The translations under genes were made by a program, and so were the position numbers. Below are positions 8,172-34,133 of a stretch of DNA of 45,953 nucleotides, one piece after another. This DNA is from a virus. Where the stretch lies: the IMG/VR virus record IMGVR_UViG_3300045988_051183; one strand, given 5' to 3'. Below the pieces are notes generated by a model. The model made no database searches and had not been told where the DNA came from. It worked only from the letters and a program-made list of their open reading frames with translations. How positions within the stretch are numbered: position 1 is the stretch's first letter; each line of letters starts with the position of its first letter.

Positions 8172-8417
8172 TTAAAAGTAAATGAAAGCGGCTGTACTGC
8201 GGGCAGTGATTGCGTATAATGTCCCGGTTTCCTGTCCCTGTAATAAACCGCCGTTTATACCGTACACCCCGGAACTATAACCCAGTTTGTCAAGGTCTTT
8301 TTCCTTTTCTATCAAGGCTTCATATTCTGCGGTTCCGTGGTTTGTAATGTCCACGGCTGCGCCCGTTCTTACAAGAGTTTTTAACTCTTTTTGTGTGTAC
8401 TCTCTCATTACTTGCAC
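8172..8417 (-). CDS. Hypothetical protein (81 aa)
   Basis: ORF overlapping the stop of the upstream gene. No family was recognised. Confidence 0.55.
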   Translation of the reverse strand: MQVMREYTQKELKTLVRTGAAVDITNHGTAEYEALIEKEKDLDKLGYSSGVYGINGGLLQGQETGTLYAITARSTAAFIYF

Positions 8418-9351: not shown

Positions 9352-9428
9352 AATCGAATTTTTCACTAAGTTTTTATAGTAAAGACTCTACTAAGAAAAC
9401 TTATACAGATTTTATGATTTACCCTACC
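9342..9428. repeat. 87-bp AT-rich imperfect palindrome, copy 2 (inverted relative to copy 1)
   Basis: Runs ggtagggtaaaat...tttaccctacc. Its reverse complement shares the exact blocks tataagttttcttagta and taagtttttatag with copy 1. Confidence 0.85.
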
Positions 9429-9454
9429 ACGCTAAGAGAAAGGATGGTGAAACC

Positions 9455-9607: not shown

Positions 9608-9674
9608 GTTGCGGTTTTGTCCAATGGGACTGTCTTAATTGACGGTTCCATTTTTTTTGTTTACGGAGGTATGT

Positions 9675-11386: not shown

Positions 11387-11445
11387 AATAACCATTGAAG
11401 AGTGCTATAATTACAATAGAAATATTAGGATTGGAGGTGGCTTGC

Positions 11446-17016: not shown

Positions 17017-17442
17017 ATGGCTACAAGTACTTATATGACTTTCCTCATGCACAAGAAGGAAACGGCATGGGAGAAGCTGCTTGACATTACTGAGTTCCCC
17101 GACCTGGGCGGTGACCCGGAACTGCTTGAAACCACCACTCTGTCTGACAAAATGCAGACCTATGTGAATGGTGTCCAGAGCAATGACGGCATGACCTTTA
17201 ATGCCAATTATGACCACACTGAGTATAAGGCTCTGAAAGCCCTTGAGGGTAAGAACGAGGAATACGCAGTATGGTTCGGTGGCACTGAGACTGCAAGTTC
17301 CCCGACTCCTACGGGTTCTGAGGGCAAGTTCAAGTTTGCAGGCGAACTGTCCGTCTACGTTACTGGTGGCGGCGTGAATGAGGTTCGTGGTATGGCGATT
17401 ACGATTGCCCCGTCCACTCCTATCACTGAGGACGAAGAGTAA
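17017..17442 (+). CDS. Major tail protein (TP901-1 / phi13-like)
   Basis: MATSTYMTFLMHK..LLDITEFPDLGGDPELLETTTLSD is typical of this siphovirus tail tube family. Confidence 0.7.
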   Translation: MATSTYMTFLMHKKETAWEKLLDITEFPDLGGDPELLETTTLSDKMQTYVNGVQSNDGMTFNANYDHTEYKALKALEGKNEEYAVWFGGTETASSPTPTGSEGKFKFAGELSVYVTGGGVNEVRGMAITIAPSTPITEDEE

Positions 17443-18257: not shown

Positions 18258-21200
18258 ATGGCAGTTGAGATTGAAGGTCTTGAGTTTCAAATTGAAGCGA
18301 AGTCCGAAAATGCCGCTAAAGGTGTAGACGCTCTGATTAACAGCTTCAATAAGCTGAAAGCCGCAACCAAAGGCGGCGCAGGTCTGAACAATATCAGCAA
18401 GAAACTGGACGCAATCAGTAATGCAAAGCTGAGTATGTCCGGGATTGAGAAGATTGAAGATTTGACGAAAAGCCTTAATTCTCTGAGCAATGTCAAGATT
18501 TCCTCCACAATCTCTAAGAGAATAACTGAAATCGGTGCTTCTCTGGATGGTCTGAATTGGTCTGGTGTGGAAAAGGTTGAAGCACTCAGCACTGCTCTAC
18601 AGAATATGCAGGGCATTCAGATTCCGAATATGAGAAATATTACTGGGAACCAGACGGCTACGCCTGCCGGGACTGCGGCTCCGGCTGACCCTGCGGGTGC
18701 AACAAATGCGGGTGCGGCAGCTACAGCGGCAACCTCTGGTATCACTCAGTATACTTCCCAGATAACTGCTGCCGCTACGCAGACCAGGGGATTCCTGGGT
18801 GTTCTGCAAGGCGTAGGTGGTGTGTTCTCAAGAGCATTTTCTGCTGTAGGTGGTGTTGCTCTGAAAGCATTTCAAGCTGCCTTGAAGGGGGTAAGCACTG
18901 CGGCAAAATCAGCAGTGAATGCTTGTAAGAAACTGGGAAGCACTATCGGCTCCAAACTGAGTAGCAAGGTGAAGCAAACAACTTCGGGTATGGGTCAGTT
19001 GTTCTCTTCCTTAAAGCGTATTGCATTGTACCGTGCAATTCGATTCTTCTTTGCACAACTTACTGCTGCAATGAAGGAAGGTATTCAGAATTTGTATATG
19101 TACAGTTCCCTCATGGGCGGTACGTTCAAGGGAAGTATGGACAGTCTGGCAACCAGTTTCCAGTACCTCAAGAACAGCATGGGTGCTATGGTGGCTCCGC
19201 TCATCAATATGATTGCTCCTGCGGTGGACGCTCTGATTGATAAATTTGCAGCATTGCTGAACATTGTCAATCAGTTCTTCGCTCGTCTGTCTGGTGCAAC
19301 CACCTTCACGAAAGCGAAGAAAGCGGCAGCTTCCTATGGCGATTCTATCTCTGGTGCGGGTAAGTCTGCGAAGAAAGCGGCAAAGGATATTAAGGACGCT
19401 ACGGTTGGCATTGATGAATTGAACATTATCAGTCAGAAGGATTCCAGTGGAAGCGGTTCTGGCAGTAAGAACTATGGCGATATGTTTGAAACCGTGCCGA
19501 TTGACAGTAGCATTTCTGAATTTACCGACAAGCTGAAAGCAGCACTGGACGCAGGTGACTGGAAAACCCTGGGTACTTTACTGGGTGAAAAGTTCAATGA
19601 GATTGTGGATAGCATTGATTGGTCTGGTATCGGTCACAAGATTGGATACGGACTGAACGGTGCAATACAGACAGCATACTGGTTCCTAAAGACAGCGGAT
19701 TTCAAGAACCTGGGTAACCATATAGCAGAACTGCTGAATGGTGCAATGGAGGAAATTGACTTCACATACCTGGGCAGACTTCTGGTTCGTGGTGTCACGG
19801 TAGCCCTTGATTTTATGATTGGCTTGCTTGGCGGTTTGAATTGGAGCCTTGTGGGAAAGAGCATTGGCGATTTCTTGAAGGGTGCATTCAATGAAGCCCA
19901 GGAGTGGATTGCAAGCTATAACTGGAACAAGATGGGCAAAGACCTGTGGAAGAATCTCAAGGCTTGTATCAAGGGCATTGACTTTGCAGGTGTGGCACAG
20001 AGTTTCTTCAAGTTACTGGGTTCTGCTCTGGCGGCTGCGGTTAGCTTTATCGCAGGTTTCGTGCAGGGTATCTGGGAGGACATTACCGGGTACTTCCAGA
20101 AATATCTCACCAATGATGACGGTACAAAGAAATGTGGTCTTGACTGGGTAGCGGGTCTACTTGAGGGTATCTGGGACGGCATTAAAAATATCGGCAAGTG
20201 GATTAAGGAGAACGTATTTGACCCGTTCATTGAGGGATTCAAAGAGTGCTTCGGTATTCACTCTCCTTCTACAGTAATGAAGGAGATGGGCGGTTATGTG
20301 GTCGAAGGTTTCTTGCAGGGACTTAACAAGTTCAGTGAGATTGCAGGCAAGGTGAAGGAATGGGCAGGTAAAGTCATTGAGTGGTTCACGAAGGGTGAGG
20401 ACGGCAAGGGTATTGTTGAGCATTTCAAGGAAATCGGCGGCAATATCGTAAGCGGCTTCAAAGACAAGGTTGGTGGCACTTATACCACGGTCAAGTCTAA
20501 CGTGACTACCTGGGCAAGCAAAGTGAAAGACTGGTTCAGCAACAACTCTTTTGGTGGAGTGAACAGCGATACTTTCAGTACCTTTGCGAACAACACGATT
20601 GAAGGTTTCCGAACCAAAGTCGGTAGTGCCTATACCAACACCAAAACGAATGTGACCACCTGGGCAAGTAAGGTCAAGGAATGGTTCACCAGTAGTTCCT
20701 TCGGTGGCGTAAACTCTACGAACTTCCAGACGTTTGCCGGGAATGTCATTGAGGGCTTCCGCACAAAAGTAGGTTCTACCTACACCACTACGAAGTCCAA
20801 CATGGTCACCTGGGCTACGAATGTGAAAGAGTGGTTTACGAACAGCGGCTTCGGCGGTGTGAACTCCGCAAATTTCCAGACCTTTGCAAACAATGTGGTG
20901 ACCGGGTTCAAGGATAAGATTGGTTCTGCGTATGTGAATACGAAGAGCAATATGACTACCTGGGCAACCAATGTGAAGAACTGGTTCTCTGGTATCGCTT
21001 CCGCTTCTGCATTTTCTGGCTTCGCAACCAGTGTGGTTGATGGATTCAAGAACAGAATCGGCGGCTACTATACTGCGGCACAGGGTAACATGAGTACCTT
21101 CGGTAGCAGCGTGAAGAGTTGGTTCACAGCGCACTGCTCCTACAACGGTTTCTATAATGTAGCTTCTGACGTAGTGAGTGGTTTTAAGAATGGTATCGGT

Positions 21201-21710
21201 GAATTGTACCATACTTGCAAAAGCACAATCTCTTCCTGGGGTAGTTCCATCATTTCCTGGTTCAAGGACAAGTTGGACGTAAACTCCCCGTCTAAGGTCT
21301 TTTATGAGATTGGTGGTTTTGCCGTTGCAGGTTTCAATAATGCGATTACCCAGGTGGGTAAGAGTACGAAGTCTGTAGTCGGCACATGGGCTGATTCCTT
21401 CACGAATTTCAGTCCGACAATGGCACTGGCAGTTGATACTTCTGCTCTGAAATATTATGACTCTGCCGCATTCTCCCGGTCTATTTCTTCTAACGTACAG
21501 AGCAGCACGGAGATTTCCGCAACGGGCTTCCGTGAAGCCATGGAGGATTTCTACCATGAGTACGTTGAACCGACCATGGTTCAGATGGCTGATGATATGC
21601 GTAGGCAAGCTGATAAGGAAGAGAAAACCGTGGTGCAGGTTGGTAACCGTGTGGTGACTGACGCTGTGACCACTCAGAAGAAAGCCAATGGCTATAGCTT
21701 TACGGGATAA
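18258..21710 (+). CDS. Tape measure protein
   Basis: 1150 aa with Ala/Gly/Ser-rich helical N-terminal segments and internal tandem repeats, located after the chaperone pair. Confidence 0.9.
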   Translation: MAVEIEGLEFQIEAKSENAAKGVDALINSFNKLKAATKGGAGLNNISKKLDAISNAKLSMSGIEKIEDLTKSLNSLSNVKISSTISKRITEIGASLDGLNWSGVEKVEALSTALQNMQGIQIPNMRNITGNQTATPAGTAAPADPAGATNAGAAATAATSGITQYTSQITAAATQTRGFLGVLQGVGGVFSRAFSAVGGVALKAFQAALKGVSTAAKSAVNACKKLGSTIGSKLSSKVKQTTSGMGQLFSSLKRIALYRAIRFFFAQLTAAMKEGIQNLYMYSSLMGGTFKGSMDSLATSFQYLKNSMGAMVAPLINMIAPAVDALIDKFAALLNIVNQFFARLSGATTFTKAKKAAASYGDSISGAGKSAKKAAKDIKDATVGIDELNIISQKDSSGSGSGSKNYGDMFETVPIDSSISEFTDKLKAALDAGDWKTLGTLLGEKFNEIVDSIDWSGIGHKIGYGLNGAIQTAYWFLKTADFKNLGNHIAELLNGAMEEIDFTYLGRLLVRGVTVALDFMIGLLGGLNWSLVGKSIGDFLKGAFNEAQEWIASYNWNKMGKDLWKNLKACIKGIDFAGVAQSFFKLLGSALAAAVSFIAGFVQGIWEDITGYFQKYLTNDDGTKKCGLDWVAGLLEGIWDGIKNIGKWIKENVFDPFIEGFKECFGIHSPSTVMKEMGGYVVEGFLQGLNKFSEIAGKVKEWAGKVIEWFTKGEDGKGIVEHFKEIGGNIVSGFKDKVGGTYTTVKSNVTTWASKVKDWFSNNSFGGVNSDTFSTFANNTIEGFRTKVGSAYTNTKTNVTTWASKVKEWFTSSSFGGVNSTNFQTFAGNVIEGFRTKVGSTYTTTKSNMVTWATNVKEWFTNSGFGGVNSANFQTFANNVVTGFKDKIGSAYVNTKSNMTTWATNVKNWFSGIASASAFSGFATSVVDGFKNRIGGYYTAAQGNMSTFGSSVKSWFTAHCSYNGFYNVASDVVSGFKNGIGELYHTCKSTISSWGSSIISWFKDKLDVNSPSKVFYEIGGFAVAGFNNAITQVGKSTKSVVGTWADSFTNFSPTMALAVDTSALKYYDSAAFSRSISSNVQSSTEISATGFREAMEDFYHEYVEPTMVQMADDMRRQADKEEKTVVQVGNRVVTDAVTTQKKANGYSFTG
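20454..21275 (+). repeat. Six tandem 138-150 bp coding repeats inside the tape measure gene
   Basis: Units start at 20454, 20604, 20754, 20904, 21042 and 21180. Each encodes GF(K/R)xK(V/I)G..Y...K.N..TWA..VK.WF. Confidence 0.85.
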
Positions 21711-24768: not shown

Positions 24769-25362
24769 ATGGCATGGAAACTTTTACCTGTTGACTATAC
24801 GGACGCTGTGTGGGCTGGTTTGAAGCGATACAACCAGATTAACAATGAGGATGGTTCGGTATCCTTCCAGGACATTACGGCTTATACCGGGAAAGAGAAA
24901 TCTTTCTTCGGGGCAAAAGACGCTAACCGCATGAACGAAGCCCTCAACACCATTATGAGCATGGTGGAGAATGGCACTGACTTGTATACCGCTTTCCAGA
25001 ATTATTTTGCAGAGCAGAAAACTTTGTTTGAGCAGGAAGCTGATTCCAAAGCAACGGAGTTTGACAACTACACAGATAATCTGGAACAGGAATATAAGGC
25101 AAGCATGGCGGCTTTTGAGAGTCAGCAGCAGCAAATTTACAATGCCTGGTTCCAGGCTATGAAAGACCAGTTGAGTAAGGACGCTGCGGGCAACCTGCAA
25201 AATCAGTGTACTGAACTGGATGAGCGTTTGACTCTGCTTGAGCAGATGACAATGCAGAATGACTTCTCTGCTCCGCTTGCTACAGATGATGAAGCAATCA
25301 CTCTGATTGTGGATGACCTGGACTATGCGATTCTGGCAGATTGGAAATACAAGGAGGAATAA
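24769..25362 (+). CDS. Coiled-coil tail fibre protein
   Basis: Gln/Glu-rich heptad-like stretches. The start abuts the previous stop (TAAATG). Confidence 0.4.
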   Translation: MAWKLLPVDYTDAVWAGLKRYNQINNEDGSVSFQDITAYTGKEKSFFGAKDANRMNEALNTIMSMVENGTDLYTAFQNYFAEQKTLFEQEADSKATEFDNYTDNLEQEYKASMAAFESQQQQIYNAWFQAMKDQLSKDAAGNLQNQCTELDERLTLLEQMTMQNDFSAPLATDDEAITLIVDDLDYAILADWKYKEE

Positions 25363-25365
25363 AAG

Positions 25366-26247
25366 ATGGCAACTATTAGTGTTCAGACGAAAAAGTTTGC
25401 AGACCTGGAAGCGATTCTGTCCGTTACGGGTACTGAGCTGATGTTGATTCACGATGGTAACGGCGTAAAGGTCATTACCGTGAAGAATCTTCATAAGGGT
25501 TTGCAGACTGACATTGATTCAGTCAGAAATGTACTGGCTGATGGTGCAGGCGCACATAACAGTATCTATCGTGGTAAGAACCTGGGTACTTCTGTTACGG
25601 CAGAACAGTACAAGGCAATTTCCGATGGTACGTTTGCAGGTCTGTATGTTGGTGACTACTGGGTTATCAGCGGAGTGACTTACCGTATTGCAGGCTTTGA
25701 CTATTACCTGCATAACGGCGATACCGATACTACGAAGCACCATGTGGTGATTGTACCCGATGAGAGTATGGGTTCCGCTCAGATGAATACCACCAATGTC
25801 ACTACGGGCGGTTATGTCGGTTCGGCTATGTACAAGGCAAATCTGAATGCGGCTAAGACTAAAATCAAGTCTGCGTTCAGCGGTCATGTTCTTAGTCATC
25901 GTGTTTATCTGACGAATGCTGTATCTAACGGCGCACCTTCTGGCGGTGCATGGTTTGATAGCGAAGTTGAACTTATGACAGAACGCATGGTTTATGGCTG
26001 TCCTGTTCATTCTCCTATGGGTGACGGTCAGAAAGACCCGTGGAGCGCAATGCACAATTATACCGTGGAAAAATCTCAGCTTCCATTGTTCGCCCTCAAC
26101 CCGGCTGCGATTGCTACACGATATGATTACTGGCTGAGAGATGTGGTTACCGCCGCTACCTTCGCTCTTGTGAGCGACGACGGGCGTGCGGACATTAACG
26201 GCGCTTCGCACTCTTTTGGCGTTCGCCCCGCTTTCTGTATCTGTTAA
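25366..26247 (+). CDS. DGR target 1: tail fibre tip / receptor-binding protein with a C-terminal variable region
   Basis: It is the last structural gene. The C-terminus YWLRDVVTAATFALVSDDGRADINGASHSFGVRPAFCIC carries VR1. Confidence 0.85.
   Translation: MATISVQTKKFADLEAILSVTGTELMLIHDGNGVKVITVKNLHKGLQTDIDSVRNVLADGAGAHNSIYRGKNLGTSVTAEQYKAISDGTFAGLYVGDYWVISGVTYRIAGFDYYLHNGDTDTTKHHVVIVPDESMGSAQMNTTNVTTGGYVGSAMYKANLNAAKTKIKSAFSGHVLSHRVYLTNAVSNGAPSGGAWFDSEVELMTERMVYGCPVHSPMGDGQKDPWSAMHNYTVEKSQLPLFALNPAAIATRYDYWLRDVVTAATFALVSDDGRADINGASHSFGVRPAFCIC
26150..26235 (+). repeat. Variable repeat VR1
   Basis: Gapless 86-nt alignment to TR. There are 17 differences, 16 of them at TR adenines. Confidence 0.9.
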
Positions 26248-26255
26248 TCGAAAAT

Positions 26256-26278
26256 CTGCACCCCCTTGTGGGGTGCAG
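26256..26278 (+). promoter_or_regulatory. Hairpin downstream of VR1 (ctgcacccc CTTGT ggggtgcag)
   Basis: Perfect 9-bp stem and 5-nt loop, 20 nt after the VR1 end. Confidence 0.75.
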
Positions 26279-26296
26279 TAGAAAGGAACTAATGAA

Positions 26297-26932
26297 ATGT
26301 CAGTATTGAAAAGCAAACGGAAACCCTCTCAGTTTGAGGTGTTTCATCATCTCAATAAAGTTAGGAAAGAGGTTACTGATTTGCTGCTCCGTGACTTTGG
26401 CTACAGCAAACGAAAGGCGGCACAACGTCTTGAAAAGAAATTCAGCGGGCGAAGCTACGAAGAACTTACTGACGTTGAGAAAGAGATTTATGACCATTTC
26501 CGCAAACAGCAGGAAGCCTTTGACACCTGGTTCATTGAGGATGAGCGGAAAGCTGTAGTCGATTGTCTGAGGTCTATCGGTGAACACGTTTACACTGCGA
26601 ACAGCATTTATCCTACCTACTATGAAGAGTTGGTGGAGCGGCGTGTTCATCAAGACTTGGCAATCGGTCAATGTTACCGACTGGTACAAGAACTACAGTA
26701 TGCAATAGAAACTCTCCCAGTGGATGTTAATACTTTCTTGAGGTTCGGTGAGGACATTCAAAGAGAGATAGACCTTATCAAAGGTTGGCGTAAATCTGAT
26801 AACAAGTTCAAAGGGGCAATCTCTGCAACCGCCGCTAACTTCGCTAATGTGAACAACAACGGGAATGCGAACAATAACAACGCTTCTAACTCTAATGGCG
26901 TTCGCCCCGATTTCGATACTTCGATTAAATAG
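26297..26932 (+). CDS. avd: Accessory variability determinant (Avd-like four-helix-bundle protein); the ORF reads through TR
   Basis: Located between target and RT. ANSIYPTYYEELVERRVHQDLAIGQCYRLVQELQ and LIKGWRKSD are typical Avd-like segments. The last roughly 35 codons are TR read in VR phase. Confidence 0.7.
   Translation: MSVLKSKRKPSQFEVFHHLNKVRKEVTDLLLRDFGYSKRKAAQRLEKKFSGRSYEELTDVEKEIYDHFRKQQEAFDTWFIEDERKAVVDCLRSIGEHVYTANSIYPTYYEELVERRVHQDLAIGQCYRLVQELQYAIETLPVDVNTFLRFGEDIQREIDLIKGWRKSDNKFKGAISATAANFANVNNNGNANNNNASNSNGVRPDFDTSIK
26829..26914 (+). repeat. Template repeat TR
   Basis: 25 adenines arranged as 12 AAY codons plus one. The non-A positions are 60/61 and 59/61 identical to VR1 and VR2. 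Confidence 0.9.
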
Positions 26933-26978
26933 CCACTTGAGCGTTTCGGAGTAAGAGAAAGGAGAGGTTGTCCTTCCT

Positions 26979-28181
26979 ATGATGGTAAATACCAAACACG
27001 ATACTACTTCTTACGAGAATTGTAGTTGTCAACGTGAAATATATGACGGCAATGCGTTGTATGACGCTTATCTTAGAGCAAAGAGTGGGAGTGATTGGAA
27101 ACCGCAGGTTCAGCGGTATGAAATGGCATATCTTCTGGACTTGTCCAAAATGCAAAGAGAGTTGAAAGAACATACCTACGAATTTCAACCCTGTAGTAGT
27201 TTCCCTCTGAATGAACGGGGTAAGACCCGCTTTATTACGGGCGAACAGATACGGGATAGAATTGCCAAACATTCTTTATGTGATGAAGTCTTGACTCCCG
27301 CAATTAAAGACCACCTCATCTACGATAATGGCGCAAGCCAGAAAGGTAAAGGAATTGACTTTACCCGCCGCAGGTTGGAAGCGCACCTGCACAGGTTCTT
27401 CCGGGAGAATCAGAGCAACAATGGTTATATCTTGCTGATGGATTTCTCAAAGTACTATGACAACATTCGACATGACAAACTCATGGAGTTGTTTGAAAAG
27501 TACGTTGATGACGATACAGCACTCTGGTTCCTGGAAAAGATTGTAGACAATGAGAAGGTGGATGTGTCCTACATGAGTGATGAGGAATATGAGTCCGCTA
27601 TGGACGATGTATTTAATTCACTGGAACATGAAAAGGTTGATAAGAGTCTGCTGACCGGGAAGAAGTTCTTGCGAAAGCACTTGAACATTGGTGACCAGGT
27701 AGCGCAGGACGCAGGGATTGCTTATCCCATACCGATTGACAACTACATAAAGATTGTAAAAGGCGTGAAATTTTATGGCAGATACATGGATGACAGTTAT
27801 GTGATTCACAAGGATAAGGAGTTTCTGAAAGGGCTGCTTATAGAGATTGTGGAAATCGCACATGACCTGGGTATTACCGTGAATCTTCGGAAAACCAGAA
27901 TATGCAAACTGTCTGAAATGTGGAGGTTTCTACAGATTCAGTATTCGCTTACCGATACCGGGCGGGTGATTCACAAGATTCATCCGAAGCGGCTTACAGG
28001 TATGAGAAGAAAGGCTAAGAAACTGGTACTCATTCTCTCAGAGAAGGATTTCGATGACTGGTTTAGGTCATGGTTCAATGGTCACTGCCACTACATGAGC
28101 AAGCTACAAAGGTCAAATATGTTAGACCTTTGCAAGAAATTAAAGGAGGAACACTACTATGGTAAAACTGATTTTAGCTGA
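26979..28181 (+). CDS. DGR reverse transcriptase
   Basis: LLMDFSKYYDNI (motif A), YGRYMDDSYVI (YMDD), SQKGKGIDF, and LNIGDQVAQ resembling the DGR-type [LIV]GxxxSQ motif. Confidence 0.9.
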   Translation: MMVNTKHDTTSYENCSCQREIYDGNALYDAYLRAKSGSDWKPQVQRYEMAYLLDLSKMQRELKEHTYEFQPCSSFPLNERGKTRFITGEQIRDRIAKHSLCDEVLTPAIKDHLIYDNGASQKGKGIDFTRRRLEAHLHRFFRENQSNNGYILLMDFSKYYDNIRHDKLMELFEKYVDDDTALWFLEKIVDNEKVDVSYMSDEEYESAMDDVFNSLEHEKVDKSLLTGKKFLRKHLNIGDQVAQDAGIAYPIPIDNYIKIVKGVKFYGRYMDDSYVIHKDKEFLKGLLIEIVEIAHDLGITVNLRKTRICKLSEMWRFLQIQYSLTDTGRVIHKIHPKRLTGMRRKAKKLVLILSEKDFDDWFRSWFNGHCHYMSKLQRSNMLDLCKKLKEEHYYGKTDFS

Positions 28182-28461
28182 CGGCACTGAACTCAAGGGC
28201 TTCAAGCAGAATGGTAACAACTATGTCAGCAAGACTGAGGTTGATGTGTCCGTGTTTGAGGACAATCTGTCCACTCTTACGATTGTGGACGGTGACACTC
28301 AGATGGTCATGCACAACGCTGAACTGATTCAGCAGGTTCAGTATGCTGACGGTTGGTATCTCTGCTTCCGTGAAAAGACTGAGCAGGAAATGCGCTATGC
28401 TGAACTTATGGGCAAATTTGAGTACCTGGCGATGATGACTGGCGTGGATATGGAGGTGTAA
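28159..28461 (+). CDS. Hypothetical protein (100 aa)
   Basis: AAAGGAGGA SD; overlaps the RT 3' end by 23 nt. Confidence 0.55.
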   Translation: MVKLILADGTELKGFKQNGNNYVSKTEVDVSVFEDNLSTLTIVDGDTQMVMHNAELIQQVQYADGWYLCFREKTEQEMRYAELMGKFEYLAMMTGVDMEV

Positions 28462-28464
28462 ATC

Positions 28465-28614
28465 ATGGAACACAGCAAGAATTTCAAGAAGGTTAAGGAG
28501 TTCTACAAAAACGGTATCTGGTCTAAAAAGATGACGTGGAACGCAGTAGGCAAGTGGATTACCCCGGAAGAGTATAAGGAAATCACCGGGGAGGATTACA
28601 ACAAGGAGGGCTAA
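28465..28614 (+). CDS. XkdX-family small protein (49 aa)
   Basis: Hand translation gives MEHSKNFKKVKEFYKNGIWSKKMTWNAVGKWITPEEYKEITGEDYNKEG, which matches the XkdX pattern. Confidence 0.65.
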   Translation: MEHSKNFKKVKEFYKNGIWSKKMTWNAVGKWITPEEYKEITGEDYNKEG

Positions 28615-28618
28615 GATT

Positions 28619-29047
28619 ATGAAAGAATGGATTTGTACTGCAATCGGAGTTGCGGGTAGCTTCATTGCTTCCCTGTTTGGCGGTTGGGACGCTGCTCTGG
28701 CAACCCTGGTTATCTTCATGGCGATTGACTATGTTACAGGTCTGATTGTCGCAGGCGTGTTCCATAACAGCGGTAAGACTGAGAATGGTGCGCTTGAGAG
28801 CCGTGCAGGTTGGAAGGGACTGTGCCGCAAGGGTGTTTCTCTTTTGGTGGTTCTGGTTGCCTGCCGCCTGGATTTAATTACTGGCACTAATTTTATTCGT
28901 GACGCTGTGGTTATTGCATTCGTGGCAAACGAAACTATCTCCATCGTGGAAAACGCAGGACTTATGGGTATCAATATTCCCCCGGCTATTACTGCCGCAA
29001 TCGAAGTACTCAAGAAGAAGTCCGATACTGACAGCGGCGCAAACTAA
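28619..29047 (+). CDS. Holin (phage_holin_4 / LL-H-like)
   Basis: Three hydrophobic segments, DYVTGLIVAG..GLCRKG, and a position upstream of the endolysin. Confidence 0.8.
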   Translation: MKEWICTAIGVAGSFIASLFGGWDAALATLVIFMAIDYVTGLIVAGVFHNSGKTENGALESRAGWKGLCRKGVSLLVVLVACRLDLITGTNFIRDAVVIAFVANETISIVENAGLMGINIPPAITAAIEVLKKKSDTDSGAN

Positions 29048-29051
29048 GGCG

Positions 29052-29075
29052 GGAGAGAGGGTTCGCCCTCTCTCT
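29052..29075 (+). promoter_or_regulatory. Perfect 10-bp hairpin with a TTCG tetraloop between holin and endolysin
   Basis: ggagagaggg ttcg ccctctctcc. No U-tract follows. Confidence 0.7.
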
Positions 29076-29096
29076 CCTATAAAGGAGTGATGACCT

Positions 29097-30506
29097 ATGA
29101 CTATCCAGGGGTTTATTGACAGTATTGCCGGGTACATTAAGAAATATGCTGCCGCTTACAATGTATGCGTGTTCAGCCCGATTATTGCCCAGGCGATTCT
29201 TGAGAGTAACAAAGGTACGTCTGAACTGGCAGTCAACGCTCATAACTACTTTGGCTTGAAGTATCGCAAAGGACGCTGCAAGACCTGCGTGGGTGTTTAC
29301 CACAAAGTAGGCAGTGAGCAGAACCCAGACGGAACCTACACCAGTTCCACTATGGAATGGTGCAAGTTTGGAAGCATGGAGGATGGTGTTATCGGGTATT
29401 TCGATTTTACCAACATTTCTGCCTATTCCAATTTGAAGGGTGTGACTGACCCCAGACAGTACCTTGAGAATATCAAAGCTGACGGGTATGCAACCTCTCT
29501 GAAATATGTGGACAACCTTATGGCTGTCATTGAGAGGTATGACCTTACCCGATATGACAAGGAGGAAATGAAAATGAGTAACAGTTCTCTGGTGTCCTAC
29601 ACCAAAATCTCACCTAACAAAAACAGTCCCCGCAATCATGTGATTGACCGTATTACCCCGCACTGTGTAGTCGGTCAGCTTTCTGCGGAGAGTATCTGCG
29701 GTTGCTTCACCAGTCCTTCCCGGCAGGCAAGCTGCAACTACGGTATCGGTTATGACGGCAGAATCTCTCTATGTGTGGAAGAGAAAGACCGCTCCTGGTG
29801 TTCTTCCAGTTCTGCGAATGACCATCGTGCCGTGACCATCGAATGTGCGTCTGACAAGACTCACCCTTACGCTATGACGAACGCTGTATATGCTTCCCTC
29901 ATCAACCTTTGCGTGGACATTTGCAAGCGCAACGGTAAAAAGAAGCTGCTCTGGTTCGGTGACAAGAACAAGACCCTGGCGTACAGTCCGAAGTCTGATG
30001 AGATGGTTCTGACGGTACATAGATGGTTTGCAAATAAGTCTTGCCCTGGTGATTGGCTCTATTCCCGTATGGGTGACCTGGCGGCAAAGGTTACTGCCCG
30101 TCTGGGCGGCAGCACTGCCGAAGAGAAGCCTGCAAGCACCACACTGTACCGTGTCCGTAAGACCTGGGCTGATAGTGCTTCTCAGAAGGGTGCATTCTCT
30201 TCTCTGGCGAATGCGAAAGCCTGTGCAGACAAGAACCCCGGCTACAAGGTGTTTGATGGTTCGGGTAATGCTGTGTACCCTGCGGAGAGCAAGCCTGCAT
30301 TCTCTCCGTATAGAGTGAAGGTTACAGCTTCGGTTCTGAATATCCGTAAGGGTGCAGGTACGAACTACGCACTGGCGGGTGCTATCCGTGACGGTGGAGT
30401 TTATACCATCGTGCAGGAAAGCACTGGGCAGGGAGCAACGAAGTGGGGTAAGCTGAAATCTGGTGCAGGGTGGATTTCCCTGGACTACACCACGAAGGTA
30501 TCATAA
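29097..30506 (+). CDS. Multidomain endolysin (glucosaminidase, N-acetylmuramoyl-L-alanine amidase, SH3-like binding repeats)
   Basis: AQAILESNKGTSELAVNAHNYFGLKY (glucosaminidase-like); an amidase_2-like middle region; C-terminal YRVKVTASVLNIRKGAGTNY..WGKLKSGAGWISLDY (SH3-like). Confidence 0.9.
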   Translation: MTIQGFIDSIAGYIKKYAAAYNVCVFSPIIAQAILESNKGTSELAVNAHNYFGLKYRKGRCKTCVGVYHKVGSEQNPDGTYTSSTMEWCKFGSMEDGVIGYFDFTNISAYSNLKGVTDPRQYLENIKADGYATSLKYVDNLMAVIERYDLTRYDKEEMKMSNSSLVSYTKISPNKNSPRNHVIDRITPHCVVGQLSAESICGCFTSPSRQASCNYGIGYDGRISLCVEEKDRSWCSSSSANDHRAVTIECASDKTHPYAMTNAVYASLINLCVDICKRNGKKKLLWFGDKNKTLAYSPKSDEMVLTVHRWFANKSCPGDWLYSRMGDLAAKVTARLGGSTAEEKPASTTLYRVRKTWADSASQKGAFSSLANAKACADKNPGYKVFDGSGNAVYPAESKPAFSPYRVKVTASVLNIRKGAGTNYALAGAIRDGGVYTIVQESTGQGATKWGKLKSGAGWISLDYTTKVS

Positions 30507-32086
30507 TCCCAGAATCGCTTCCAGGAATGTGACTTCAATCTACAGTGGAACGTGTGAATTAACAGGTTTCCTGTGATTGTTGGATTTGCACTCATACCTG
30601 GTGCATTGGAAGTGAAATCCGACAACGTGCCGCCTTTGTTTAGGCGGTACGTTTTTGTCGGTAAAGAGGTTAGATTATAAGCAACGGTGACCTTATAGGT
30701 ATTATCGTCCTCATCCCATACAGTGACGGAGTTTACGAAAAGGTCAATGAGCATACGGCAGAACTCTTCATCTTCAATACTGCCGCCCCGAAACTGTTCT
30801 AACCAATAAATAACCTGGGCTTTGTCCAGTTCAACAATATCCTCAGATTCTTTCTTAGCCTGTGCTTGCAGGTCTTTCTTTTCTTTCTCTAATTCACCCA
30901 TACGCTTCACAAGCATATCTGGGGCTGACCCGGATTCAATAGCTTTGAGAAGATGGTTGAGAGATAAGTCTACCTGGTGAATACGGTCACGAATAGTTGG
31001 GAGGGCTGAATCCAGTTCAATCTCATGCTGATTCTTCTCACAGGCAATAGTAGCAATCTGTTCTATATATTCATCCGTAAGGAGTGATAGAGCGTCCTGG
31101 GCAACCAGTCTTTCTATGAACTCCTTACGGATATTCTTTTTCTTGCAGTCAACATTGCCGTTCTTCTTTCCGTAACACTGATAGTAACAGTAGTTTCCTG
31201 CATTGCAATTTCCGTTCATTTTACTACCACAATGTCCGCAGAAGATTTTACCACTAAGCAGGTAGACTACTTTTGCTTTGTTCCGGGCAGGTGCATTTTT
31301 AATCTTACCGACTCTAAGTTGCACCCTGTCCCAGAGGTCTTTGTCAATTATAGCAGGTATAGCGTCCTCTGCCCGGTAGTCATGAAAGGTATAAACTCCG
31401 ATGTACCTCTCATTACGGAATATTTTGGTGAAAGAACTCTTTCCGAAAGCTGTACCCTTTGAGGTTTTGTATCCACGGGCATTAAACTGACGGCAGATTT
31501 CAGCAACCGTTTCTCCGTCTGCATATTTCTCAAAGGCTTCTTTTACAATGGGAGCCGTTTTAGGGTCTATTACCAGTTTCTTATCTTCAATCTTATATCC
31601 CAGAGGAATTGCCCCTCCTATAGAGTTATGCTTATAGGCTGACTCTCTCATACCACGGTTAATTTTCTGGGATAGTTCGGCACTGTAGAACTCAGCCATA
31701 CCTTCAAGCACGGATTCCAGAATGATACCTTCCGGGTCATTGCTGATATTCTCTGTGGCAGATATAAGCTGCACCCCGTTACGCTTCAAGCGATATTTGT
31801 AGGTGGCTGAGTCATACCGGGAACGGGCGAAGCGGTCAAGTTTGTATACGATTACAGCGTCAAACAAGCCCTTCTCAGAGTCCTTTATCATCTTGAGGAA
31901 CTGGACTCTCTTCTCTATATCCTTACTGGCAGATGTGGCTCTGTCAGCATATATCTCTACAATTCTAATATTATGCCGCTTGCAGAAGTCACGGCAAACA
32001 CGGGTCTGCCCTTCAATGGATTGCTCAGTCTGGTTATGGCTTGAGAATCTAACGTATAGGCAGGCTGTTTTTATATCCTCATACAT
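30485..32086 (-). CDS. int: Large serine recombinase (integrase)
   Basis: N-terminal ACLYVRFSSHNQ..SIEGQ catalytic serine region, a recombinase domain, a Cys-rich zinc ribbon (CGHCGSKM..CYYQC) and a coiled coil. Confidence 0.9.
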   Translation of the reverse strand: MYEDIKTACLYVRFSSHNQTEQSIEGQTRVCRDFCKRHNIRIVEIYADRATSASKDIEKRVQFLKMIKDSEKGLFDAVIVYKLDRFARSRYDSATYKYRLKRNGVQLISATENISNDPEGIILESVLEGMAEFYSAELSQKINRGMRESAYKHNSIGGAIPLGYKIEDKKLVIDPKTAPIVKEAFEKYADGETVAEICRQFNARGYKTSKGTAFGKSSFTKIFRNERYIGVYTFHDYRAEDAIPAIIDKDLWDRVQLRVGKIKNAPARNKAKVVYLLSGKIFCGHCGSKMNGNCNAGNYCYYQCYGKKNGNVDCKKKNIRKEFIERLVAQDALSLLTDEYIEQIATIACEKNQHEIELDSALPTIRDRIHQVDLSLNHLLKAIESGSAPDMLVKRMGELEKEKKDLQAQAKKESEDIVELDKAQVIYWLEQFRGGSIEDEEFCRMLIDLFVNSVTVWDEDDNTYKVTVAYNLTSLPTKTYRLNKGGTLSDFTSNAPGMSANPTITGNLLIHTFHCRLKSHSWKRFWDYDTFVV

Positions 32087-32113
32087 GGTTCTTCCTCCAC
32101 TCTACAAAATCAA

Positions 32114-32461
32114 TCACCCGGCACTTTCGTTGTCCCCTTTTCGCTTCTCACACATACAGGTAGTAATAATGTTGAATCTACCTTGTGGGGTAGCGGAACG
32201 GAATGCATCAAGCAGTAATTGCTCTTCTTCTGTTAGGGAAATCTCTACTTTTGGGTATGGTGAATCAGATAAACAGAATAAATAATCAGTAGAAACGTGA
32301 AAATATTTAGCCAGTCTTAGTACGGCTTCGGCACTGGGCGCATAAGTTCCCTTTTTCCATTTGCTAAAACTGCCATTAGATATACCTGTAGCAGCTTCAA
32401 GGGCTTTTACTGTTAATCCCGACTGTTTTTGTAACTCCAAAATGCGTTCTAAGGTATCCAT
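32114..32461 (-). CDS. cI-like repressor (XRE-family HTH)
   Basis: SGLTVKALEAATGISNGSFSKWKKG looks like an HTH. It is divergent from the early operon and directly upstream of int. Confidence 0.8.
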   Translation of the reverse strand: MDTLERILELQKQSGLTVKALEAATGISNGSFSKWKKGTYAPSAEAVLRLAKYFHVSTDYLFCLSDSPYPKVEISLTEEEQLLLDAFRSATPQGRFNIITTCMCEKRKGDNESAG

Positions 32462-32506
32462 AAGAACCCTCCTAAAAATAAATTTGGGAAAACTCTAAAA
32501 TACCTG

Positions 32507-32535
32507 TTGACAATTTGGGAATTCTCTACTATACT
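32507..32535 (+). promoter_or_regulatory. Early rightward promoter (PR-like)
   Basis: TTGACA at 32507-32512, a 17-nt spacer, then TATACT at 32530-32535. It is overlapped by a repeat of aatttgggaaNNctcta. Confidence 0.6.
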
Positions 32536-32710
32536 GAGTATGTCAACAAAAGTTGTTTACAGGGTATAAGAAATAGCCCCTCCGGGCTGTAAATTTTACC
32601 CCGCAGAGTTTTCAATGGTATATGGGTGTGGTAGCTTCATTATAACCTTTGAAGAGTCTGTTGTCAACTTTAGTTTACAAGATTCTAATATGAAAGGAGG
32701 AAGCGAAAAC

Positions 32711-32935
32711 GTGGAGGAACGTGAAAACATTCGTGAGCGGCTTAAAAAGCACAAGCTGTCTTACGTCTGGTTGATTGGTCAGCTTGCCTTGCGGGGTATT
32801 GTGACTGATAAGACAGAGATGAGTTCAGTAATTTCGGGAACCAGAAACGGTACTAAAGCGGACGCAATCATTGAATTGTCCATAGATATTCTGGACAAGT
32901 ATGAGAATGGTTCCGTCCTCGTTGATGGGGCTTAA
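32711..32935 (+). CDS. Cro-like / early regulator (start uncertain)
   Basis: GTG 32711 follows AAAGGAGGA. It is the first gene of the rightward operon. Confidence 0.5.
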   Translation: MEERENIRERLKKHKLSYVWLIGQLALRGIVTDKTEMSSVISGTRNGTKADAIIELSIDILDKYENGSVLVDGA

Positions 32936-33084
32936 TGCTTCGCACATTAGAAGGAAGCGCACTTTGTTCTGTCCTTGCTGACAGGGTAAAGGAATACTTC
33001 AAAGATGAGGAAAACCGCAAGAAGTTTGAAATCTGGTATCAAGAAAAATACGGTAAGCCGTACAAGTGGAGGAAAACACAATGA
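32935..33084 (+). CDS. Hypothetical small protein (49 aa)
   Basis: TAATG coupling upstream and ATGA coupling downstream. Hand translation gives MLRTLEGSALCSVLADRVKEYFKDEENRKKFEIWYQEKYGKPYKWRKTQ. Confidence 0.45.
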   Translation: MLRTLEGSALCSVLADRVKEYFKDEENRKKFEIWYQEKYGKPYKWRKTQ

Positions 33085-33653
33085 AAGTAAAAAGAATGAT
33101 TAAGTCTGACGTTGATACTTTTAAGGTTGGAGATATTATCAAGGTCAAACTCACGGACGGTGTGAAGGTGCAGGCTATGGCTATGCAGCAGGAAGAGGAC
33201 GGCATGATTTTCTGCCTGGTTGATTGCCTGCCTGGTGAGTACCCGATGAACAGCACCCGTACCAATGAAGGAGGTTACGAAGAGAGTGACCTGCGTAAGA
33301 AGCTGAATGGTGAGATTCTGAATCTCTTCCCGGCAGAACTCAAGGCTATGATGGCTCCGTTTGACAACGGTGATTTGCTCCGTCTGCCGACTGAGAAAGA
33401 GATTTTCGGAGAGAACTACTACGGTGAGTACGAAAGCCCGTATGTGAAGCAGTGGAAGCCTATGAAGAAGCGTAGAAACCGTATGGCGTTCGATGGCAGC
33501 AAGGATGAGAACTTACAGTGGTACTGGCTGATGAACAAGGTCAGAGAATCCGCCGCTAGCTTCGCTAGAGTGTACAGCGGCGGGCATGCTAGCCATGGCG
33601 GCGCTTCTTACTCTCTTGGCGTTCGCCCCGCTTTCAAAATCAAGAATCGTTAA
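33081..33653 (+). CDS. DGR target 2: small early-operon protein with a C-terminal variable region
   Basis: The C-terminus WYWLMNKVRESAASFARVYSGGHASHGGASYSLGVRPAFKIKNR carries VR2. GGAGGA SD. No signal peptide or tail-attachment domain was recognised. Confidence 0.85.
   Translation: MKVKRMIKSDVDTFKVGDIIKVKLTDGVKVQAMAMQQEEDGMIFCLVDCLPGEYPMNSTRTNEGGYEESDLRKKLNGEILNLFPAELKAMMAPFDNGDLLRLPTEKEIFGENYYGEYESPYVKQWKPMKKRRNRMAFDGSKDENLQWYWLMNKVRESAASFARVYSGGHASHGGASYSLGVRPAFKIKNR
33550..33635 (+). repeat. Variable repeat VR2
   Basis: Gapless 86-nt alignment to TR. There are 19 differences, 17 of them at TR adenines. The codon phase is the same as VR1. Confidence 0.9.
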
Positions 33654-33654
33654 T

Positions 33655-33677
33655 CTGCACCTCCTTGTGAGGTGCAG
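33655..33677 (+). promoter_or_regulatory. Hairpin downstream of VR2 (ctgcacctc CTTGT gaggtgcag)
   Basis: 9-bp stem and the same CTTGT loop as the VR1 hairpin, with one compensatory base-pair change. It lies 19 nt after the VR2 end. Confidence 0.75.
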
Positions 33678-33692
33678 TGGGAGCAGAAGCCT

Positions 33693-34133
33693 ATGAAACA
33701 AGTGAACAAAACAATGGGAAACCACTTTGAAGAGGAACTGTGTGAACTTCTGGCAGAGCAAGGTTTCTGGGCGCACAATCTGGCACAAAACCAGGTAGGA
33801 CAACCCGCAGACGTGCTTGCGGTTCGGGACAACATAGCAATCTTGATTGACTGCAAGGTATGTTCTAACAACCGCTTCCCGTTATCCCGGATTGAACCAA
33901 ACCAGGAAGCGGCTATGACCATGTGGGAAGCCCAGGGCAATGAGCATTGCTACTTCGCTATGAAGCTGAATGACGGACAGATATATATGATTCACTTCGA
34001 TGAGTTATGTCTGCGGCAGCTTTACGGGCAGGGCAGCATTACAGAGTCAGAGTTTCCAGAGTACAAGACCTTTCAAGAGTGGTTGGAGGAAATGGATGTT
34101 TATAGAAATCGGGAGCCGATTGAAAATCCTTGA
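33693..34133 (+). CDS. PD-(D/E)xK nuclease, Hjc-type Holliday junction resolvase-like
   Basis: GNHFEEELCELLAEQGF..PADVLAV..AILIDCK fits the GxxFE / D / (D/E)xK arrangement. The ORF-track GTG 33672 lies inside the VR2 hairpin. Confidence 0.55.
   Translation: MKQVNKTMGNHFEEELCELLAEQGFWAHNLAQNQVGQPADVLAVRDNIAILIDCKVCSNNRFPLSRIEPNQEAAMTMWEAQGNEHCYFAMKLNDGQIYMIHFDELCLRQLYGQGSITESEFPEYKTFQEWLEEMDVYRNREPIENP

Follow-up and report, generated by a model that had tools for sequence, protein, structure and literature searches.

The phage genome analysed here very probably carries a complete diversity-generating retroelement (DGR) with two targets, the protein T1 bearing the variable repeat VR1 and the protein T2 bearing VR2. 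The phage is temperate and siphovirus-like, with a circular contig of about 45.8 kb (the window, meaning the whole stretch of DNA that was analysed, spans 45,953 nucleotides), and its host is, to judge from sequence relationships, a Lachnospiraceae gut bacterium; a 99% match to its reverse transcriptase (RT) is found in an Oribacterium sp. prophage. The original prediction of a complete DGR is supported, as all parts are present and adenine-specific variation is seen among near-identical phages. The genes and repeats of the system are as follows.

25366-26247, + strand: target gene 1 (T1, 293 aa), ending ...GVRPAFCIC, with VR1 at its C-terminus
26150-26235, + strand: variable repeat VR1, in the last ~30 codons of T1; 86-nt match to TR
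26297-26932, + strand: avd-like gene (211 aa); PHROG match 'Avd protein of DGR', E 9e-4
26829-26914, + strand: template repeat (TR), with 12 AAY codons and an IMH*-like end at 26897-26914
26979-28181, + strand: RT (400 aa), with motifs ILLMDF, IGDQVAQ and YMDD
33081-33653, + strand: target gene 2 (T2, 190 aa), a stand-alone DUF6273 protein with VR2 at its C-terminus
33550-33635, + strand: variable repeat no. 2 (VR2), at the C-terminus of T2; match to TR

The cassette had been placed at the end of the tail module, correctly, because it falls between tail-fibre genes on one side and XkdW/XkdX-like genes, a holin and an endolysin on the other. ORF 28159-28461, conserved 3' of the RT in nearly all relatives, was considered as a fourth DGR component and rejected; it looks like the usual XkdW/XkdX tail pair, because an XkdX-family gene, the holin and the lysin come next. 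Searching the cassette DNA against GenBank phages returned a 65-nt match only.

TR and VR1 align over 86 nt with zero gaps (87 nt if positions 26828/26149 are counted). All but one of the 25 adenines of TR lie in 12 in-frame AAY codons, the other being the A of a GAT; AAY codons encode Asn, and 12 are templated per target gene. Mismatches number 17, with 16 at TR adenines and one elsewhere (position 59, T>G), and the hypergeometric probability of placing at least 16 of 17 mismatches on 25 adenines among 86 positions is 3e-10. The match length, adenine count and mismatch counts claimed from first inspection were exact on re-alignment, and the site assigned to VR1, in the final ~30 codons of a protein with a GVRPAF end, agrees with the ...GVRPAFCIC terminus of T1. 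That prediction also implied two VRs; the second is real, and its coordinates, 33550-33635, are first given here. VR2 differs from TR at 17 adenines and 2 non-adenine positions (P = 4e-10), every one of its 12 AAY codons being altered, such that differences from TR are nearly confined to TR adenines in VR1 (16/17) and VR2 (17/19) alike. The non-adenine mismatches, one in VR1 and two in VR2, are the points in the repeats that go against a DGR reading.

The motifs originally claimed for the RT (YMDD, LLMDF and IGDQVAQ) were all found in the translation of 26979-28181. The protein matches RVT_1 in Pfam (E 8e-11) and phrog_1423 in PHROG (E 1e-56), and its best PDB match is 8ub7_A, a 328-aa RT (E 2e-10) that we take to be the Bordetella DGR bRT, with retron and group II RTs at about 1.5e-4. 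The nearest cultured-phage RTs (those of Fontainebleau, nd12, Shimadzu, Lelie and others) all reside in DGR cassettes. By domain, PDB and phage-RT matches alike, the enzyme beside TR is of the DGR lineage. A PADLOC search gave generic or weak RT matches and nothing more. Motif 4 is at its expected place and reads IGDQVAQ, missing the strict [LIV]GxxxSQ pattern, a diagnostic aid for DGR RTs and not a defining one, by Ala for Ser. This substitution, which had been pointed out earlier, is real and is a clade trait among relatives at least 60% identical: AQ is present in 80/80 motif-bearing RTs at that level, versus SQ in 65 of the 68 at 40–50% identity. The AQ-type RTs that were examined adjoin diversified VRs, and motif patterns in DGR detectors should allow AQ.

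The avd-like ORF continues in frame across TR, a read-through found in 72/74 TR contexts, and its stop codon is located inside the loop of the stem-loop at 26918-26952. An AF2 model of the protein (pLDDT 80) is helical over residues 12–167 with a disordered tail at 178–211. Its top-probability Foldseek matches (0.93–0.97), with E-values >0.1, were 2rld and 2gsc, presumably four-helix bundles belonging to the same family as Avd. The protein had zero Pfam or NCBIfam matches and its alignment profile produced chance matches only against the PDB; one homologue carries the source name 'Avd-like'. At the sequence level its assignment as Avd is weak, while its position, size and predicted helical bundle fit Avd. 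By analogy with BPP-1, it would have an accessory role.

Six further elements lie in or around the repeats.

26218-26235, + strand: IMH-like 3' end of VR1, GGCGTTCGCCCCGCTTTC, a GC-rich element plus a VR-specific C
26256-26278, no strand assigned: GC-rich hairpin/cruciform 20 nt past VR1, CTGCACCCC-CTTGT-GGGGTGCAG; repeat family D18
33655-33677, no strand assigned: hairpin 19 nt downstream of VR2, CTGCACCTC-CTTGT-GAGGTGCAG
26814-26824, + strand: upstream strand of a long-range duplex, GGGCAATCTCT
26918-26952, + strand: stem-loop 4 nt 3' of TR, ACTTCGA...TCGGAGT plus an inner 3-bp helix
26957-26973, + strand: spacer segment, with GAAA at 26957-26960 and AGAGGTTGTCC at 26963-26973 as the downstream duplex strand

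The IMH-like end is the same in VR1 and VR2, and its IMH*-like counterpart, GGCGTTCGCCCCGATTTC, forms the last 18 nt of TR. Both have GGCGTTCGCCCCG, after which the VRs read CTTTC and TR reads ATTTC, a single differing base that gives GATTTC in TR where the VRs have GCTTTC; the GC-rich element at the VR 3' end thereby differs from that of TR. This base is TR position 82, which is A in TR and C in both window VRs and almost all VRs of relatives, the sole exception being VR1 of prophage L085, which has A. The near fixation of C in the VRs of relatives is consistent with the earlier suggestion that position 82 is an IMH/IMH* difference. Among close relatives, diversity in segment 26218-26296 is 0.003. 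The hairpins have 9-bp stems, 19–20 nt downstream of each VR, and that of VR2 differs from that of VR1 by one compensatory base-pair change. VR-downstream hairpins occur in 73/76 distinct contexts; their stems take 27 different sequences, the CTTGT loop is conserved, and stems of at least 7 bp were found in 42/76 contexts versus 16/1520 shuffles. The region 3' of TR has a different structure, so that a GC-rich inverted repeat of the VR type follows the VRs and none follows TR. We propose that the VR1 hairpin is a target-recognition element, a role it would share with the hairpin after the VR in BPP-1, where a 4-nt GRNA loop is essential (PMC3240598).

Within an RNAalifold consensus of 41 sequences, the stem-loop at 26918-26952 has compensatory changes in 7/7 outer and 2/3 inner pairs. 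Paired cells amount to 98.7%, the covariation score was reached in 0/500 shuffles, and the signal collapses in slid controls. An Rfam search of 25000-34500, stem-loop included, gave zero family matches. We propose this element as a candidate Avd-binding stem-loop of the DGR RNA. Around it, 26814-26824 pairs with 26963-26973 over 11 bp, bracketing TR, with 97% of positions paired and compensatory changes at 4 positions (12 distinct sequence combinations), an observed value matched by just 1/1000 shuffles; the upstream strand is coding sequence, and its variation is therefore limited. RNAalifold also drew a local hairpin at 26961-26977, which was rejected as lacking two-sided changes, and the long-range duplex is preferred because it has them. 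The GAAA of the spacer is complementary to the TR 3' end (UUUC, 26911-26914); this helix 2 pairing is invariant, and covariation thus cannot judge for or against it. A stem-loop 3' of TR and a duplex across TR are both present, and may correspond to two BPP-1 elements, the stem-loop bound by Avd and the cPRT Stop, respectively. By analogy with bRT, cDNA priming would be placed in the spacer.

Evidence for activity comes from the population. We assembled 20 TR-VR pairs, the window's own two and 18 more, from phages ~96–97% identical to this one. Across these pairs, 317/505 adenine sites differ versus 14/1215 others. Pairwise diversity among nine close relatives is 0.255 in VR1, compared with 0.007 in TR and 0.003–0.047 in the flanks. 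Every related contig has a different VR1, TR occurs as two alleles that are each invariant, and the non-adenine bases of a VR follow the TR allele of its own genome. The contigs of these relatives show, at the population level, one-way TR-to-VR transfer that is still under way, and DGR diversification in the phage population is ongoing, on lineage-level evidence drawn from relatives.

Could the cassette instead be a fossil, its VRs diversified formerly and the element now dead in the present lineage? The evidence for activity is indeed lineage-level, and dead relatives exist, such as the Moryella indoligenes prophage L163, which retains a VR but has lost TR and RT residues 1–277; T2 copies outside phages also have frozen VRs. 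We nonetheless consider this very unlikely, given that the RT ORF is intact and 100% identical to the RT of relative L001, that nothing is broken in TR, the IMH-like ends, the two hairpins or the RNA helices, and that phages 96–97% identical over 12–14 kb share TR while each has its own VR1 and VR2. A shared TR with differing VRs in near-identical phages implies many recent mutagenic events. Barely credible, in our view, is the notion that the repeats arose by ordinary paralogous duplication and diverged through point mutation or gene conversion, beside an RT from a retron, a group II intron or a defence system. Such an RT is hinted at by the top NCBIfam match, a model for group II intron RT/maturases (far under cutoff at E 3e-18), and by weak matches to defence RTs, but all of the intron and defence family matches fall far under curated cutoffs, 8ub7 is the closest solved structure, and neither a maturase nor an endonuclease domain, nor any intron or msr/msd RNA, is present, Rfam being empty. 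Paralogous divergence, moreover, is at odds with mismatches that concentrate on TR adenines and with a TR that stays constant while the other copies vary.

A DGR with two targets also requires that VR2 be a true target and not a passive paralogue, a possibility to which we give little credence. VR2 is 6.7 kb from TR, past the lysis genes and integrase, most T2-homologue loci have no DGR core within 10 kb, and certain T2 copies elsewhere are not diversifying: those in non-phage contexts lack the hairpin and have near-identical VRs (Pfam searches of the genes around one such copy, L174, were uninformative). Against this, VR2 has the same IMH-like 18-mer and hairpin as VR1, at equal spacing, all 12 AAY codons are altered, and VR2 varies among near-identical phages while agreeing with the TR allele that its genome carries; the homologous Shimadzu orf43 is experimentally modified. 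Phage-borne T2 copies retain the hairpin, with VR2 different in each phage-borne relative, and across 53 T2 homologues variation is found only in AAY-templated codons, the scaffold being conserved. An impression that T2 was missing from most close relatives proved wrong, as T2 was found beyond the 10-kb flank of the same contigs (the T2 locus L167 with the DGR locus L002, and L176 with L010).

Both targets are DUF6273 proteins (PF19789), matching Pfam at 25.6 bits for T1 (residues 235–292) and 37.5 bits for T2 against a cutoff of 23.5, and in each it is the model's C-terminal part, the site of the VR, that is matched. T1 residues 136–292 align to T2 residues 52–187 (27% identity, E 1e-9). In its N-terminal ~85 aa, T1 matches phrog_27494, 'virion structural protein' (residues 1–84), and T2 matches phrog_21980 (E 7e-28). 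NCBIfam gave zero matches for T1 or T2, and the T2 alignment profile gave chance matches only against the PDB. The AF2 model of T2, from a 53-sequence alignment, reached a pLDDT of 47 because the homologues are too similar (81–95% identity). The targets are proposed to adopt a C-type-lectin fold on the basis of their DUF6273 matches, published modelling and the analogy with BPP-1.

T2 is gene 3 of an early rightward operon, and its start codon overlaps the stop of a 49-aa ORF (32935-33084); the overlaps at its start and stop suggest translational coupling to the operon of the cro-like gene. It is conceivable, though we think it rather doubtful, that T2 is an early cytoplasmic binding protein and not a virion component, tracking a variable partner inside the cell or in its envelope, for example a host factor for defence or exclusion. 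Consistent with a non-virion protein, T2 is without the ~85 virion-like N-terminal residues of T1, has no evident signal peptide on inspection by eye, and belongs to an operon just upstream of which is a near-consensus promoter-like site; in four lineages (the present phage, Fontainebleau, Shimadzu and Lelie), T2 homologues are encoded in an early or non-structural part of the genome. The more usual reading, in which T2 is an adhesin attached to the virion and its gene lies apart from the structural genes, is compatible with all of these data. The function of T2 may be testable in Oribacterium sp. HCP28S3_H8, a cultured lysogen.

Taken as a two-target DGR, the system would operate as follows. 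The avd-TR-RT region would be transcribed, and the RNA would fold into the stem-loop 3' of TR and the long-range duplex around it. The RT would then make cDNA of TR, jointly with the Avd-like helical-bundle protein and with misincorporation opposite adenines, and this cDNA would replace a homologous VR marked by an IMH-like end and a GC-rich hairpin ~20 nt downstream. The receivers of the mutagenised copy would be T1, the terminal protein of the tail-fibre module, through VR1, and T2 through VR2, each with 12 randomised Asn codons.

In conclusion, the DGR described here is one more well-preserved case of a known type of system, reported earlier from related gut phages, and it leaves the current picture of DGR function unchanged. 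What is added to the original prediction is the location of T2, the VR hairpins, the TR-flanking RNA elements and the avd read-through of TR. Dozens of near-identical genomes provide a population record of mutagenic homing, elements characterised biochemically in one Bordetella phage (the spacer stem-loop, the TR-bracketing duplex and the VR hairpin) recur in Clostridia phages, and a second target of the T2 sort, a short free-standing DUF6273 protein whose gene lies among those for early functions or replication, turns up repeatedly. With the prototype, BPP-1 (mtd-avd-TR-brt), the present element shares its gene order (target, avd, TR, RT), the adenine specificity of transfer from TR to VR, a GC-rich IMH-like VR end with a differing TR counterpart, a GC-rich hairpin after the VR and none after TR, a stem-loop directly 3' of TR, and a duplex that joins the spacer to the 3' end of avd. 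BPP-1 differs in having one target instead of two, Mtd instead of DUF6273 proteins, several IMH/IMH* differences instead of one, a 4-nt GRNA hairpin loop instead of the 5-nt CTTGT, and SQ instead of AQ in RT motif 4, before which the present RT has ~50 extra residues; the 211-aa Avd-like protein, with its N-terminal extension and TR-encoded tail, is also unlike that of BPP-1.

The large-plus-small target layout has been published for Shimadzu and Lelie/CP11, and our own search verified that the T2-like genes of Shimadzu, Fontainebleau and Lelie contain VRs matching TR. In Roseburia phage Shimadzu (LR596903), VR1 in a tail gene adjoins avd-TR-RT and a second VR is located in a small protein of the replication module, orf43 (34% identical to T2), both VRs being modified in virion reads. 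However, Shimadzu infects another host genus and is myovirus-like with baseplate genes, its RT is 32% identical, and its avd (136 aa) ends before TR. Faecalibacterium phages Lelie, Toutatis and CP11 likewise have DUF6273 targets of two sizes, 'large' and 'small', in their DGR (PMC11792537), the small target of Lelie (orf58) lying about 16 kb off, past a serine integrase, but they differ in host and in RT (about 27% identical), and in Lelie VR1 lies inside a gene located 3' of the RT and read-level activity was not seen (PMC11792537). The two-target phages nd4 and nd12, with their 'tentaclins' (PMC10743442), have RTs about 29% identical and a first target in which an N-terminal DUF6273 precedes Ig-like domains and the VR is close to the 5' end, whereas both VRs are C-terminal here and there are no Ig domains. 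The closest cultured relative is Acutalibacter phage Fontainebleau (ON453893; RT 45% and T2 46% identical), whose cassette is also situated between tail genes and holin/lysin and whose small target lies between DNA polymerase I and helicase. Its avd ORF is not fused to TR and its hairpin stems are different; the ON453893 annotation is without DGR repeats, and both of its VRs were located in the present work.

We find support for a complete diversity-generating retroelement (DGR) with two targets, active at the population level, in the window. As the original prediction proposed, and as the gene map built from PHROG, NCBIfam and Pfam matches bears out, its core lies at the end of the tail module. 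The core features were located by listing ORFs in 25200-28400.

Gene map of the window
4106-5605, primase
9639-11342, large terminase
11395-12921, portal
14362-15378, major head protein
17017-17442, major tail protein
18258-21710, tape measure
as far as 25362, additional tail proteins
25366-26247, first target gene (T1)
26297-26932, avd-like ORF
26829-26914, template repeat (TR), within the 3' end of the avd-like ORF
26979-28181, reverse transcriptase (RT)
after the RT, XkdW-like and XkdX-family genes
28619-29047, holin
29097-30506, endolysin
30485-32086, minus strand, serine integrase
32114-32461, minus strand, RstR/DicA-like repressor
32507-32535, plus strand, promoter-like site, 11/12 matches
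32667-32639, minus strand, promoter-like site, 12/12 matches
between the repressor and T2, cro-like gene, then a 49-aa ORF
33081-33653, second target gene (T2)
after T2, in this order, resolvase-like gene, helicase, DNA polymerase

The same 119 nt stand at both ends of the window (1-119 and 45835-45953), indicating a complete genome of 45,834 bp that is circular or terminally redundant. Two prophages encode near-identical RTs, one in Oribacterium sp. HCP28S3_H8 (99% identity) and one in a Lachnospiraceae MAG (98%), which identifies the host group. At 28159-28614, a 100-aa ORF that overlaps the 3' end of the RT gene, and that nearly all relatives keep behind the RT, precedes a 49-aa XkdX-family ORF; together they resemble XkdW/XkdX of tail modules, so that avd, TR and RT were apparently inserted between a fibre gene and the XkdW/XkdX-like genes. 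Elsewhere, a 35-nt segment recurs six times in the tape-measure gene (20353-21125) at a spacing of 150 nt (138 nt once), which indicates that the protein has a repeat with a period of 50 aa. A 92-nt sequence occurs at 5610-5701 and 9341-9432 as mutually inverted, 75% complementary copies, apparently outside long ORFs, one after the primase and the other before the terminase; the latter is palindromic on its own (9341-9384 with 9386-9429). Between the repressor and cro-like genes lie the two promoter-like sites listed above, both near-perfect and of sigma-70 type, which fit a lysis-lysogeny switch region.

All sequence-level statements of the original prediction proved correct. The gapless 86-nt alignment of TR with the first variable repeat (VR1, 26150-26235) was reproduced; the 25 TR adenines come from 12 AAY codons and one GAT; and 16 of the 17 mismatches fall on adenines, the remaining one being the predicted T>G at position 59. 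The motifs ILLMDF, IGDQVAQ and YMDD were likewise all found in the RT. An adenine-tolerant scan of the whole window returned a sole further copy, VR2 (33550-33635), with 17 adenine and two non-adenine mismatches to TR. By chance, such a concentration at adenines would arise with a probability of about 3e-10 (VR1) and 4e-10 (VR2).

The RT matches Pfam RVT_1; among solved structures, the 328-aa reverse transcriptase 8ub7_A is its best relative (E 2e-10, against about 1.5e-4 for retron and group II RTs). We take 8ub7 to be bRT, the RT of the prototype DGR of Bordetella phage BPP-1, from its length and a cryo-EM study of the bRT-Avd-RNA complex, the text of which does not contain the PDB code. The alignment passes over about 50 residues of the window RT directly before IGDQVAQ (about 197-248; 27567-27722) that have no counterpart in 8ub7. 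Among cultured phages the nearest RT is that of Acutalibacter phage Fontainebleau (45% identity), others being those of Faecalibacterium phages Brigit, Toutatis, Lelie, Pioen, Roos and Taranis, and the nd12 and Shimadzu RTs are 30-32% identical; published DGRs exist for several of the phages with the nearest RTs. The replacement of Ser by Ala in the RT signature, already pointed out in the prediction, is a clade trait: AQ is present in 80/80 relatives of at least 60% identity in which the motif was found, and SQ in 65/68 of those in the 40-50% identity bin. As elements with AQ have diversified VRs, the change is compatible with function.

Activity was read from comparison across the lineage, in place of the read mapping suggested in the prediction, and concerns the lineage rather than the single window genome. 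Of 444 RT relatives in IMG/VR, 17 are 96-100% identical, and the flanks of these contigs match the window at 96-97% identity across 12-14 kb. Their TRs fall into two alleles differing at few non-adenine positions; the non-adenine bases of each contig's VR1 are those of its own TR, with differences almost only at adenines, and VR1 is distinct in nearly every contig. Summed over 20 TR-VR pairs, mismatches occupy 317/505 adenine sites and 14/1215 other sites, six of the 14 coming from a single VR with a shorter 5' boundary. Pairwise diversity among nine close relatives is 0.255 in the mutable part of VR1, 0.007 in TR, 0.003 in the segment from IMH (the GC-rich 3' end of the VR) to avd, and 0.026-0.047 in the remainder of T1, avd and RT. 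T2 follows the same pattern: across 53 aligned homologues (81-95% identity) the scaffold is conserved and the variable columns are the AAY-templated codons; one 90%-identity cluster in the homologue set has 7,495 member sequences.

Ordinary paralogy beside an unrelated RT is excluded by the adenine specificity of the mismatches and the invariance of one copy. A fossil element is unlikely, since the parts are intact and phages that are nearly identical to one another have many distinct VRs. It is also unlikely that VR2 is a passive paralogue: it shares its IMH-like end and downstream hairpin with VR1, differs among phages while tracking the TR allele, and has a homologue in Shimadzu that is a proven target. 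The prediction of a complete DGR is thus supported by intact parts, adenine specificity, a near-invariant TR and many distinct VRs.

In two related contigs (L003, 9851-9936; L044, 673-758), TR carries adenine-to-other substitutions common to the VR1 of the same contig, and in L044 VR2 differs from TR at non-adenine sites; these TRs suggest occasional VR-to-TR gene conversion, or an assembly chimera between both repeats. T1 occurs in two types with a protein identity of just 69%, avd and RT being 96-99% identical (25366-26247 compared with L004, L007-L011, L014 and L015), and each type is paired with its own TR allele, so that target and template are apparently exchanged together or co-evolving. 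A prophage of Moryella indoligenes DSM 19659 (L163, about 7324-8369; NZ_JAUSTO010000002), with neighbouring proteins 95-98% identical, has a deletion from avd residue 175 to RT residue 278 that takes out TR; VR1, its hairpin and a T2 homologue are kept, making this a naturally dead DGR with frozen VRs.

A GC-rich hairpin with a 9-bp stem and the loop CTTGT lies 19-20 nt downstream of each of VR1 and VR2, the two copies differing by one compensatory pair (CCCC/GGGG vs CTCC/GAGG). A hairpin is present in 73/76 distinct VR-downstream contexts of relatives, with 27 stem sequences, a conserved loop and usually AATC immediately 5' of the stem; the stem reaches 7 bp or more in 42/76 contexts, compared with 16/1520 shuffles. 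It is the counterpart of the BPP-1 hairpin/cruciform, which homing efficiency requires and in which stem structure rather than stem sequence matters (PMC3240598). As the BPP-1 loop is a 4-nt GRNA (PMC3240598), the 5-nt loop of this family is a variant.

A stem-loop after TR (26918-26952), unlike the VR hairpin in structure, has compensatory changes in 7/7 outer and 2/3 inner pairs across 41 sequences; 98.7% of cells are paired, its covariation score is matched by 0/500 shuffles, and slid controls collapse. A long-range duplex can form between 26963-26973 and the 11 nt that lie just 5' of TR (26814-26824), with compensatory changes at four positions in 12 distinct combinations and a pairing reached by 1/1000 shuffles. 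TR ends in UUUC, the complement of an invariant GAAA (26957-26960). Searches of Rfam gave no family for the VR hairpin, TR stem-loop, long-range duplex or TR 3' end pairing. Were cDNA primed beside UUUC:GAAA, its synthesis would start at, or short of, the A at TR position 82, which would explain why the VRs retain a C of their own. That position had been proposed as a possible fixed difference between IMH and its TR counterpart, IMH*, and the retained C agrees; the VR1 of the Oribacterium prophage (L085, 7172-7257) ends in the TR-like GATTTC instead of GCTTTC, so this boundary, or single IMH/IMH* difference, is not absolute.

The avd-like protein is likely, but not proven, to be Avd. It matches PHROG Avd weakly (E 9e-4), and Pfam, NCBIfam and PDB-profile searches returned no match. 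Its confident AlphaFold2 model (pLDDT 80) comprises a helical bundle (12-167) and a disordered tail (178-211); the Foldseek matches of top probability (0.93-0.97) were 2rld and 2gsc, presumably four-helix-bundle proteins of the family that includes Avd, with RMSD of about 2 Å over 81-84 columns and E-values that are not significant. The ORF has no stop before TR and runs on in the AAY frame to a TAG within the conserved loop TTAAATAGCC of the spacer stem-loop, so that TR encodes the Asn-rich tail, predicted to be disordered, and gives the protein a spurious match to the target family (phrog_21980). This read-through is kept in 72/74 related TR contexts, even in one where about 25 extra codons are inserted in frame, the exceptions being Fontainebleau and the related locus L102. 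Since TR needs an open frame regardless, we treat the fusion as probably incidental.

Both targets score above the Pfam DUF6273 threshold. T1 residues 136-292 align with T2 residues 52-187, and T1 residues 1-84 match phrog_27494; T1 is thus a virion-protein-like N-terminal segment plus a DUF6273 domain, and T2 is DUF6273 alone. The lectin fold of the targets is predicted, resting on published modelling of DUF6273 domains; the structure model of T2 had a pLDDT of 47. The cro-like gene, the 49-aa ORF and T2 overlap in series, each stop codon with the ATG of the next gene, and the near-consensus site at 32507-32535 lies upstream of this operon, making T2 probably an early gene. Homologues of T2 have similar locations, between DNA polymerase I and helicase genes in Fontainebleau (46% identical) and between methyltransferase and Erf genes in Shimadzu (orf43, 34%); the small second-target gene of Lelie (orf58), which is not among direct tblastn matches to T2, lies past the integrase. 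TR-matching VRs were confirmed in all three.

T2 homologues of 77-89% identity also occur on long contigs amid unrelated genes (L174, L175, L181-L187, L190-L213; T2 match at about 10001-10570 in each), with no RT or TR within 10 kb. The hairpin is missing downstream of these copies, and their VRs are almost the same in many contigs; on phages, T2 copies retain the hairpin and every VR is different. Presence of the hairpin thus shows a naturally occurring correlation with diversification across T2 copies, although the identical VRs could also result from clonality of the host contigs.

In conclusion, some specialist interest attaches to the AQ form of the RT signature, the VR hairpin with its 5-nt loop, the BPP-1-like RNA elements backed by covariation, the fused avd-TR reading frame, and the small early-region target that recurs among phages. 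The two-target layout itself is already in the literature: the tail VR1 of Shimadzu and its VR2, which lies in orf43, are both modified in about 2% of virion reads; Lelie and CP11 have one 'large' and one 'small' DUF6273 target (PMC11792537); and nd4 and nd12 have two DUF6273 targets each (PMC10743442). The DGR described here adds another example.
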